A DNA stretch of 17,644 nt from Dickeya dadantii NCPPB 898. GTDB lineage: Bacteria; Pseudomonadota; Gammaproteobacteria; Enterobacterales; Enterobacteriaceae. Shown piece by piece: positions 16,235 through 17,644 of this stretch. The stretch lies in contig NZ_CM001976.1 in the NCBI RefSeq assembly GCF_000406145.1, positions 1,797,217 through 1,814,860 of the forward strand, written 5' to 3'. The notes under the pieces were generated by a model. It was given only the letters and a program-made list of their open reading frames with translations, made no database searches and was not told where the DNA came from. Within the stretch, counting starts at the first letter, position 1. Every line of letters begins with the position of its first letter. A program made the translations under genes and the position numbers.

Positions 16235-17644
16235 ATGCGATACGACACCATCCCTGCACAAGCGATACGCCATGACAGCTCCCGGATGGATGGAGAGCAA
16301 TGGCCACTCAGCTCTCCTCAGCAGGTCATATGGTTGGAGCAAATACTTCACCCAGACTCCAGTCACTATAATCTGGGCCTGCTCTATCGTATTGAGGGCA
16401 GGCTTGATCAGGCACTGTTCGTCCAGGCGGTAGAAATTTCTGTGGAGCGCCACGATGCGCTGCGCCTGCAACTTAAAGAGATCAATGAGCCCATTCAGGT
16501 ACTCTGTAACAGCGCGCCTATCCCGACTCGTATCCACGACCTGTCTGGTTGCACAGACCCGGAAGCTGAGCTGGATAAACACGTCAACGCCCTGGTTAGG
16601 CAGGCGTTTGACTTAACAGGGCAACTCTGGCGTTCTGACTTGCTGCGGATTAGCGAGTCGTGCTGGTATTGGCATTGTTGCTGTCATCATTTGATTCTGG
16701 ATGGTCGTAATATCATCCTGATTATGAGAGAGGTTGCGGATACGTATACCCGCTTGATCAATAAAGTGGGTATGGCGGAACGAGCGCCATCCTACCTCGA
16801 TTTTATTACAGAGGATCTCGCCTATTTCCATTCAGCGGGCTATAGCCAGGACCGGGATTTCTGGTTGGAGCGTTATGCAACGCTGCCCCCAATACTCATT
16901 CCTGCAAATAGTACTCACATGAGTCATGAGGTGTCCGAGTCACCGCTACGTTGGCAGCTTGAGGCACCGCTATTAAAAACCATCGAGGCAATGCTTAATG
17001 AACACCGCCTATCGCTGTTGCACTTTATGTATGCGTTGTTGGCATGCTACTTCACGCGAACGACGGGTGAGCGGGACATCGTCATTGGTATTCCGGTGCA
17101 TAACCGTCGTAACGCCAGGCAAAAAAATACGATAGGGATGTTCGCATCCGTCATTCCTGTGAGGATTTGCATAGCGGATCAGGATACATTCCTGGATGTG
17201 ATGCATAAATGTGCAAGCGAACTGCGAAAGTGTCATAAACATCAACGCTTTCCTATATCGGAAATCAATCGTCACACTAGAGTCCAGCAAAAGACTGGAC
17301 GTTCTCAGCTATTTGATATTTTGCTATCGCTGGAGTTGTTCGAAACGAATGCGTCAATGGAGTACTGTAGTATTAGCCTGGTCGGGGTGCATCGCGGCAC
17401 TTCCAATCCGCTTGCCATCAGTATTCAACAATACAAGTACTCCCAAGATGATGACAATACGCCTGTTACCATTGAGTTCAGTTGTGCACCAGGCCATTTG
17501 AGCAAGATGGAGGTCGAGGCGCTACAGCGACGGCTGAGCGTGTTATTAGGGGCAGCGCTTCGTGGTCCAGATACGCTGATTAACCACTTATCGATTTTAC
17601 CTGAAGCCGAGCGTCGGCAATTACTGGTCGACTTCAATGCGACA
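16235..17644 (+). CDS. Nonribosomal peptide synthetase, N-terminal condensation domain (3' end beyond the window)
   Basis: 470 codons are open from ATG 16235 (alternative ATG 16286) to the last base. It is not in the ORF track because it has no stop in the window. Condensation-domain motifs appear in order: PLSSPQQVIWLEQ, VERHDALRLQL, CHHLILDG (16685-16705 = HHLILDG), YLDFITED, IGMFASVIPVRI. It ends with the C-A linker ..LPEAERRQLLVDFNAT. Confidence 0.9.
   Translation, partial: MRYDTIPAQAIRHDSSRMDGEQWPLSSPQQVIWLEQILHPDSSHYNLGLLYRIEGRLDQALFVQAVEISVERHDALRLQLKEINEPIQVLCNSAPIPTRIHDLSGCTDPEAELDKHVNALVRQAFDLTGQLWRSDLLRISESCWYWHCCCHHLILDGRNIILIMREVADTYTRLINKVGMAERAPSYLDFITEDLAYFHSAGYSQDRDFWLERYATLPPILIPANSTHMSHEVSESPLRWQLEAPLLKTIEAMLNEHRLSLLHFMYALLACYFTRTTGERDIVIGIPVHNRRNARQKNTIGMFASVIPVRICIADQDTFLDVMHKCASELRKCHKHQRFPISEINRHTRVQQKTGRSQLFDILLSLELFETNASMEYCSISLVGVHRGTSNPLAISIQQYKYSQDDDNTPVTIEFSCAPGHLSKMEVEALQRRLSVLLGAALRGPDTLINHLSILPEAERRQLLVDFNAT

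Follow-up and report, generated by a model that had tools for sequence, protein, structure and literature searches.

The NRPS gene and the segment that it borders

The window analyzed here is a stretch of 17,644 nucleotides from Dickeya dadantii NCPPB 898 (contig NZ_CM001976.1, positions 1,797,217 to 1,814,860), and its right end, positions 16235-17644, is the start of a real and very large gene for a nonribosomal peptide synthetase (NRPS). Translation from ATG 16235 on the + strand gives a frame of 470 codons that contains no stop through the final base of the window at 17644, as an earlier note on this DNA had described, and the chance of an open frame of that length, calculated from the base composition of the window, is approximately 8e-10. 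The closest in-frame stop on the 5' side is TGA 16142-16144, which lies 91 nt away, and ATG 16235 is the first start codon past it, with another ATG at 16286. An AGGAG sequence that resembles a Shine-Dalgarno site by its context (16223..16227, +) stands 7 nt 5' of ATG 16235.

The gene can be followed beyond the window in CP023467.1, a record that an exact-protein look-up with the adjacent VirB10 fragment retrieved. Two papers attribute CP023467.1 to D. dadantii DSM 18020, and it shows 0 mismatches to the window across 12,203 shared bases. The gene table of CP023467.1 lists one NRPS gene with the same ATG, a product of 5,605 aa, and 21 Pfam entries, and we calculated its position as 1,911,345-1,928,162, a frame of 16.8 kb. 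Codons 1-470 of the 5,605 (16235..17644, +) are thus present in the window and encode a starter condensation domain (Cs) followed by the linker between condensation (C) and adenylation (A) domains. In the sequence of CP023467.1 the frame stays free of stops for 3,243 codons, and the domain reading reported here covers these first 3,243 of the 5,605 aa. Rather than closing soon after 17644, the frame continues through three pairs of A and thiolation (T) domains, so the proposal of an NRPS that begins with a C domain and extends to the right was correct. The same note had regarded the gene as missing from the list of open reading frames (ORFs). That absence was an artefact, since the list leaves out ORFs that do not close inside the source sequence; CP023467.1 does have the gene called. 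The gene is therefore already in the public record and is of a familiar kind; its product is uncharacterized, and we found no published description of the cluster.

We used sister assemblies (labeled L008, L009, and L010), which were found through an identical CynS protein, to locate the gene relative to variable DNA. In L008 and L010, collinearity with the window ends at approximately 15977, and ParE, LysR, and YdcZ genes follow, with no NRPS. L009 has the same junction with an insertion sequence (IS) of the IS3 family as the window and carries the NRPS at 98.8% nucleotide identity, although its contig ends inside the first A domain (A1); four more places are similar to that in L009. The point of divergence in L008 and L010, together with the junction in L009, therefore places the left border of the NRPS-bearing segment at approximately 15978-16036 (15978..16036, without strand, by sister-strain collinearity) and indicates that the segment is variable among close strains. 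In the place that the NRPS takes in the window, L008 (4112-5047) and L010 (3487-4422) carry paired YdcZ (DMT) genes, whose proteins are 90-97% identical to homologues of Salmonella, Lelliottia, Leclercia, and Serratia, which points to a putative horizontally shared block.

The DNA at this border consists of remnants. From 16037 to 16220 on the + strand is the left end of an IS3-family element, which comprises the 5' part of orfA, is frameshifted, and is cut 14 nt before the NRPS ATG. IS3-family transposase genes carried by Klebsiella and Erwinia plasmids match it at 82-87% nucleotide identity, and the translation of the remnant reads ...TRYTEEQIVFALKLAETGTRVEEVCRKMGGF* and then SEATFYN in a different frame. 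A search of plasmid and E. coli collections for near-identical DNA found none, with the IS3 remnant alone being matched. Debris of type IV secretion genes flanks the NRPS cluster at 14175..15963 (+) and includes fragments of VirB4 (14175-14888, +, with a weak match to Pfam CagE_TrbE_VirB), VirB8 (14563-15249, +, Pfam VirB8), and VirB10/TrbI (15442-15963, +, Pfam TrbI), each within a truncated ORF. The border had been described from the sequence as IS and conjugation-gene debris, which fits these features.

These surroundings raise an alternative to a gene in current use, namely that the NRPS, although intact, is cargo that is silent or in decay. In that case it would be what is left, in cryptic form, of an integrated conjugative element, having lost its native promoter through the IS3-mediated truncation and yielding no product at present. 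Such a history would account for an IS3 remnant that stops 14 nt before the ATG, for neighboring genes that are fragments, and for the absence of the segment from L008 and L010. Furthermore, a scan of 15850-16400 for promoters and terminators returned nothing on the + strand and detected no sigma-70-like promoter site there, including in the 385 nt upstream of the gene. The native sequence 5' of the gene has been displaced by the IS3 remnant up to a point 14 nt before the ATG, and any expression is thus putative. However, the 16.8-kb frame is called intact, and both the junction and the gene are kept in at least one other assembly. Over the 795 codons that can be compared with L009, the window shows 15 synonymous and 10 non-synonymous differences and no stops (pN/pS 0.2, binomial p=1e-4), which argues for a maintained gene. 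In addition, the ribosome-binding site is good and the upstream fragments are oriented in the same direction as the gene, so that transcription could arise by read-through or from an IS-borne promoter. We therefore view silent cargo as unlikely, and we consider below what a maintained gene would produce.

The first condensation domain and its probable acyl donor

The first domain of the synthetase matches Pfam Condensation (PF00668) over its full length (E=1.9e-71, 241.6 bits against a cutoff of 30.6), with residues 23-464 spanning positions 5-456 of the 456-position profile, which bears out the condensation domain that had been read by eye. The catalytic HHxxxDG motif is present as HHLILDG at residues 151-157 (16685..16705, +), exactly where the earlier note had placed it, and both His, the Asp, and the Gly are conserved in the alignment. 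The Arg equivalent to R275 of RzmA is also kept. No A or T domain precedes this C domain, and the 5' stop, the ribosome-binding site, and the called ATG agree on where the protein begins.

In a small, distance-based (neighbor-joining) tree of C domains, the domain falls inside a clade in which every member is an N-terminal C domain; the others come from Xenorhabdus, Chromobacterium, Brenneria, Lonsdalea, and Pectobacterium and are 50-52% identical to it. The sister of that clade comprises starters of the SyfA type (29-35% identity), so that the tree groups the domain beside the SyfA starters. The LCL and dual epimerization/condensation (dual-E/C) domains of the same protein and its relatives lie in distant clades at 22-25% identity, and EntF is 22% identical. 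A search against all PDB chains ranked 7C1K, 7C1H, and 7C1P at the top with 133 bits, followed by lower matches to Txo2 (101 bits), EntF (89 bits), and CDA-C1 (86 bits). The chain 7C1H is RzmA-Cs, a lipo-initiation domain that moves an acyl group from acyl-CoA onto the first residue (PMC7804268). Taken together, these sequence comparisons show a C domain that is of the starter type by its affinities and that groups with characterized Cs domains, not with LCL, DCL, or dual E/C domains.

A starter C domain could receive either an aryl or a fatty acyl group, and both EntF-type aryl capping and a lipo-initiating starter had been named as candidates before this analysis. Under aryl capping, the gene would encode a siderophore-type synthetase whose first C domain accepts its starter, 2,3-dihydroxybenzoyl or salicyl, from a distinct aryl carrier protein, in the manner of EntF, DhbF, or MxcG, with the carrier perhaps supplied by the chrysobactin machinery. 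The beta-strand before HHxxxDG does resemble that of EntF, which has RWYWYQRYHHLLVDGFS at this motif, and the sequence given in the earlier note was accurate, but the resemblance is generic to starter-type C domains and the identity to EntF is 22%. EntF also groups toward the starters in the small tree, and the NCBIfam models return MxcG at 165 bits, the PvdL-like first C at 111 bits, and EntF at 97 bits. These same models were applied to two lipo-initiation controls and to two internal C domains of the synthetase. SyfA-C1 scored 146 bits for MxcG, 149 for the PvdL-like first C, and 100 for EntF, and RzmA-Cs scored 320, 103, and 156 bits, respectively. In contrast, internal C2 scored 45 bits for MxcG, with EntF below E 1e-5 and SolG as the best other model at 420 bits, and internal C3 scored 80 bits for MxcG and 82 for EntF, with a PvdL-like elongation C as the best other model at 432 bits. 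Because the lipo-initiation controls show the same pattern, with MxcG and EntF scores that equal or exceed those of the query, and the internal C domains do not, we interpret the signal as a marker of starter-type domains and rejected the MxcG and EntF matches as evidence of aryl capping.

The remaining comparisons also run against an aryl donor. Identity to EntF (22%) is below that to the lipopeptide starters (29-35%), RzmA-Cs stands well above EntF in the PDB ranking, and aryl-acid genes were not found in the 16 kb to the left of the NRPS. Furthermore, to our knowledge Pro-Thr-Gly, which is the residue order predicted below, with dual-E/C-type domains is no typical catecholate scaffold. We consequently regard aryl capping as quite improbable, and of the two candidates the lipo-initiating starter is favored, with lipo-initiation starters being closer to the domain than EntF. 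Three points favor a fatty acyl over an aryl donor, namely the closer affinity to lipopeptide starters, the lipopeptide-like modules, and the 16 kb on the left in which no aryl-acid genes occur, and the domain most likely accepts a fatty acyl group from acyl-CoA or from an acyl carrier protein (acyl-ACP). Many multi-protein NRPSs contain subunits that start with a C domain, but a split assembly line, in which the N-terminal C domain would receive an aminoacyl or peptidyl chain from another NRPS and no acyl starter, is highly improbable here, given that the domain clusters among the starters and shares only 22-25% identity with elongation C domains, that no NRPS gene lies upstream in the window, and that the Brenneria, Pectobacterium, and Xenorhabdus relatives also start with such a C domain.

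Modules, A-domain mosaic, and predicted product

The 3,243 aa of the synthetase contain three each of the Pfam domains Condensation, AMP-binding, AMP-binding_C, and PP-binding, and their catalytic and carrier motifs are all intact. The module order reads Cs-A(Pro)-T, dual-E/C-type C-A(Thr)-T, LCL-type C-A(Gly)-T, and then another C domain. Close to the N-terminus of C2 is HHLLQQQGD, and its active site reads HHIVTDH, a motif pair that we take to be the dual epimerization/condensation pattern. The active site of C3 is HHIISDG, which is of the LCL type, and the sequence past T3 begins like C2. The motif-anchored signatures of the A domains are DVQFVAHVVK (A1), DFWNIGMVHK (A2), and DILQLGLIWK (A3). 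The core of A1 best matches module 1 of GrsB (125 bits) and module 1 of TycB (109 bits), with a third match at 79 bits, and both of these modules activate proline. The Thr code of A2 is documented, as is a Gly code one residue off that of A3 (PMC12283262). The prediction of A-domain specificity that had been recommended therefore gives Pro-Thr-Gly for A1-A3. With a module size of approximately 1,060 aa, the 2,401 residues that remain after module 3 correspond to two modules and approximately 275 aa, which is about as long as a thioesterase, and the 21 Pfam entries equal 5x4 + 1. By extrapolation, five modules and a thioesterase thus fit both numbers, and we infer that modules 4-5 and a terminal thioesterase are present.

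The A domains themselves are mosaics. The last residues of the window, LPEAERRQLLVDFNAT, form the C-A linker, with FNAT at 17633-17644, and the interval 17603..17644 (+) holds this linker and the start of a repeat of approximately 510 nt that heads A domains 1-3. The linker had been recognized at the end of the window, and its ...FNAT junction is seen again before A2 and A3, with nucleotide similarity between modules starting approximately 30 nt 5' of FNAT, within the last 40 bases of the window. A1-A3 agree in protein at each of their first 170 residues but for a single change in A1, and roughly the last 205 residues are nearly identical; the nucleotide identity of these flanks is 98.2-99.4% on the N-terminal side and 91-98% on the C-terminal side. 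In contrast, the central 158-169 residues, which contain the specificity code, are mutually unrelated. The GC content is 64-68% in the A flanks, 46, 58, and 51% in the A cores, and 50% in the starter C domain, and that of the genome is approximately 56% (PMC7348025). In locus L007, the stretch of CP023467.1 that was read, the three A domains of this pattern lie at 12194-20522, which starts at approximately 17603 of the window, and the GC mosaic extends over 16235-17644 of the window and 10794-20522 of L007. The boundaries of the pattern are the C-A linker and a point just before the T domain. As judged from these identities, A1-A3 are a clear case of natural subdomain exchange or gene conversion, which is a known phenomenon. 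Such repeats also cause draft assemblies to break inside the NRPS gene, and the sharply bounded mosaics bear on how NRPS specificity evolves.

Based on the domain order, synthesis would begin with Cs taking a fatty acyl group in trans from acyl-CoA or acyl-ACP and transferring it onto the amino nitrogen of the T1-bound first residue, which is proline by the A1 signature. The chain would next pass the dual-E/C-type C domain and A(Thr)-T, then the LCL-type C domain and A(Gly)-T, and subsequently a further C domain, two more modules, and a terminal thioesterase, of which the latter part is extrapolated. The predicted product is an N-acyl pentapeptide that starts with Pro-Thr-Gly and is possibly cyclized. 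We consider it probable that the gene encodes an NRPS with a lipo-initiation Cs domain that makes such an N-acyl pentapeptide; the gene lies at the edge of a strain-variable segment.

Besides the upstream region described above, several points weigh against this assignment. Sequence alone does not separate a fatty acyl from an aryl donor, and EntF and MxcG belong to the same broad starter group. The gate residues Q36, Y138, and R148 of RzmA align with Leu, Cys, and Ile in the first C domain, with the Cys at the Y138 position conserved across its whole clade, whereas SyfA has Tyr or Phe at the R148 position and reportedly loads long 3-hydroxy acyl chains. In RzmA, shortening R148 leads to acceptance of a longer acyl chain (PMC7804268). 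We dropped the R148/Y138/Q36 gate as a guide to acyl chain length because SyfA does not obey it. The predicted modules 4-5 and thioesterase, as well as any genes for an acyl ligase, ACP, transporter, or aryl acid, would lie in the last 2,362 residues of the product or further downstream, past the sequence that was read. A dual E/C domain is unusual in both of its positions, after Pro, which implies D-Pro, and probably again after achiral Gly, and the C subtypes were assigned by motifs and a small tree in which the LCL and dual-E/C classes had no external reference sequences. The open frame, the order of domains in three modules, the starter-type affinity, the A-domain signatures, the border, and the distribution among strains are shown directly, and epimerization, the kind of acyl donor and its chain length, the expression of the gene, and its biological role are inferred.

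A broader proposal, which we put forward tentatively and hold at somewhat less than even chances, is that some D. dadantii strains make an island-borne, undescribed lipopentapeptide, N-acyl-Pro-Thr-Gly-X-X, that affects surface spreading, antagonism, or virulence, and that its synthetase has undergone very recent exchange of A-domain specificity subdomains. If true, the exchange points could guide NRPS engineering. D. dadantii is a major soft-rot pathogen, and secondary metabolites that vary among its strains are candidates for differences in fitness, antagonism, and host range; strains with and without the NRPS provide a natural comparison set. The type strain of D. dadantii thereby gains an orphan lipopeptide-type assembly line that has no characterized counterpart.

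Neighboring genes and known systems

To the left of the border, the window carries no biosynthetic genes, as the earlier note had stated, and instead contains an AHH pair, a cyn operon, regulators, and an Rhs toxin/immunity pair. Within 13080-14059, an orphan ORF for an AHH-family nuclease toxin (13080-13505) overlaps a 185-aa ORF without a Pfam match that is probably its immunity gene, and the AHH block and the VirB4 fragment (together 13093-14930) are missing from L008 and L010. The interval 10838-12993 contains cynS (cyanase), a cynT-like gene for carbonic anhydrase, and a divergent LysR gene (cynR-like), and the CynS protein is identical in at least 10 contigs of related strains. Exact-protein look-ups of CynR and the AHH-immunity protein of the window found no record. 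The interval 80-1845 covers the C-terminal end of an Rhs-repeat protein, which carries the toxin domain Endonuclease_NS_2, and then an Imm-NTF2 immunity gene whose start overlaps the stop of the toxin gene, an arrangement that makes the pair a polymorphic toxin cassette. On the - strand, 2453-4465 encodes a 670-aa fusion of a weak PNPOx-like N-terminus with FAD-binding, NAD-binding, and 2Fe-2S ferredoxin domains, and 9059-9783 contains a gene for a class-I glutamine amidotransferase that is split by a single-base deletion (G7 -> G6, at approximately 9622-9628). The sister-strain protein has 241 aa and is otherwise 100% identical to that of the window, and either the gene has become a pseudogene or a sequencing error in the homopolymer accounts for the split. 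No matches came from scans of the window for Rfam families and tRNA genes.

The closest database relatives of the starter C domain are unnamed, uncharacterized NRPSs that are 49-54% identical to it, from Xenorhabdus spp., Chromobacterium amazonense, Lonsdalea populi, Brenneria rubrifaciens, and Pectobacterium jejuense. They share its N-terminal position and a conserved ..CC-HH.. motif, but their downstream module order and A-domain signatures differ. We rejected orthology with the Brenneria and Pectobacterium NRPSs because the module order differs, that of Brenneria being Cs-A-T-LCL-A-T-LCL-A-T-C/E. The closest full-length relative, the NRPS of B. rubrifaciens (locus L001, 673-7464), is preceded by a TraG/VirD4-like coupling protein, the IS21 genes istA and istB, and a YopJ-family acetyltransferase. 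Like the Dickeya gene, it is thus found beside type IV secretion and IS genes, which suggests that NRPS genes with this starter C domain travel as cargo of integrative elements. In a large protein search, all matches were shorter than approximately 820 aa and even the 795-aa partial NRPS of L009 (1-2385) was not returned. Proteins that are nearly identical or very long thus seem to be beyond the reach of that database, and the absence of close matches there is weak evidence. A protein search with the repeated A-domain C-terminus, T3, and the start of C4 returned only relatives at 57-75% and no Dickeya fragments. Literature searches led to genome-mining papers on oocydin, zeamine, solanimycin, and unnamed NRPSs of D. 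fangzhongdai as the Dickeya clusters described, and to no description of this one. The earlier judgment that the gene matches no known pathway thus holds, and rather than near-identity to a well-characterized synthetase we found best relatives that are unnamed and approximately 50% identical.

Solanimycin SolG (NCBIfam NF041803) was rejected as a counterpart, since the total of 2460, above the cutoff of 2200, is reached only when four stretches in different modules are added up, and C2 alone gives 420 bits. SolG is a single 1,163-aa C-A-P protein in a cluster of trans-AT polyketide synthase (PKS)/NRPS type, an architecture unlike that of the Dickeya synthetase (PMC9765074). EntF (enterobactin) and MxcG (myxochelin) share with it membership in a broad class that accepts a donor other than an aminoacyl group, as well as a similar motif before HHxxxDG. 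They differ by the low identity to EntF and the lack of aryl-acid genes noted above and by scores far below the equivalog cutoffs: the C domain reaches 97 bits against 2400 for EntF and 165 against 2300 for MxcG, and all 3,243 aa, summed over several modules, reach 1358 and 1474 bits, both below cutoff.

RzmA-Cs/HolA-Cs of Mycetohabitans (Paraburkholderia) rhizoxinica (7C1H; PMC7804268) is the best solved relative and resembles the first C domain in its N-terminal position, HHxxxDG motif, and Asp-Arg salt-bridge residues; it differs in having approximately 30% identity, the gate changes Q36->Leu, Y138->Cys, and R148->Ile, and a different downstream peptide. SyfA and other Pseudomonas starters form the sister clade at 29-35% identity and are likewise followed by modules of the dual-E/C type, but SyfA belongs to a different genus and a different peptide. 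The synthesis of syringafactin, which involves SyfA, is a multi-protein system and does not depend on one gene. The closest likeness in predicted layout is to SwrA of Serratia, a single gene with (C-A-T)x5 and a thioesterase that makes the lipopentapeptide serrawettin W2 (PMC7767323). The comparison is one of layout only, with three modules read, and the 5,605 aa and 21 Pfam entries of the Dickeya gene fit this enterobacterial one-gene arrangement. Serrawettin W2 is said to be Leu-Ser-Thr-Phe-Ile, and the predicted Pro-Thr-Gly does not follow the same amino acid order, which distinguishes the Dickeya assembly line from SwrA.

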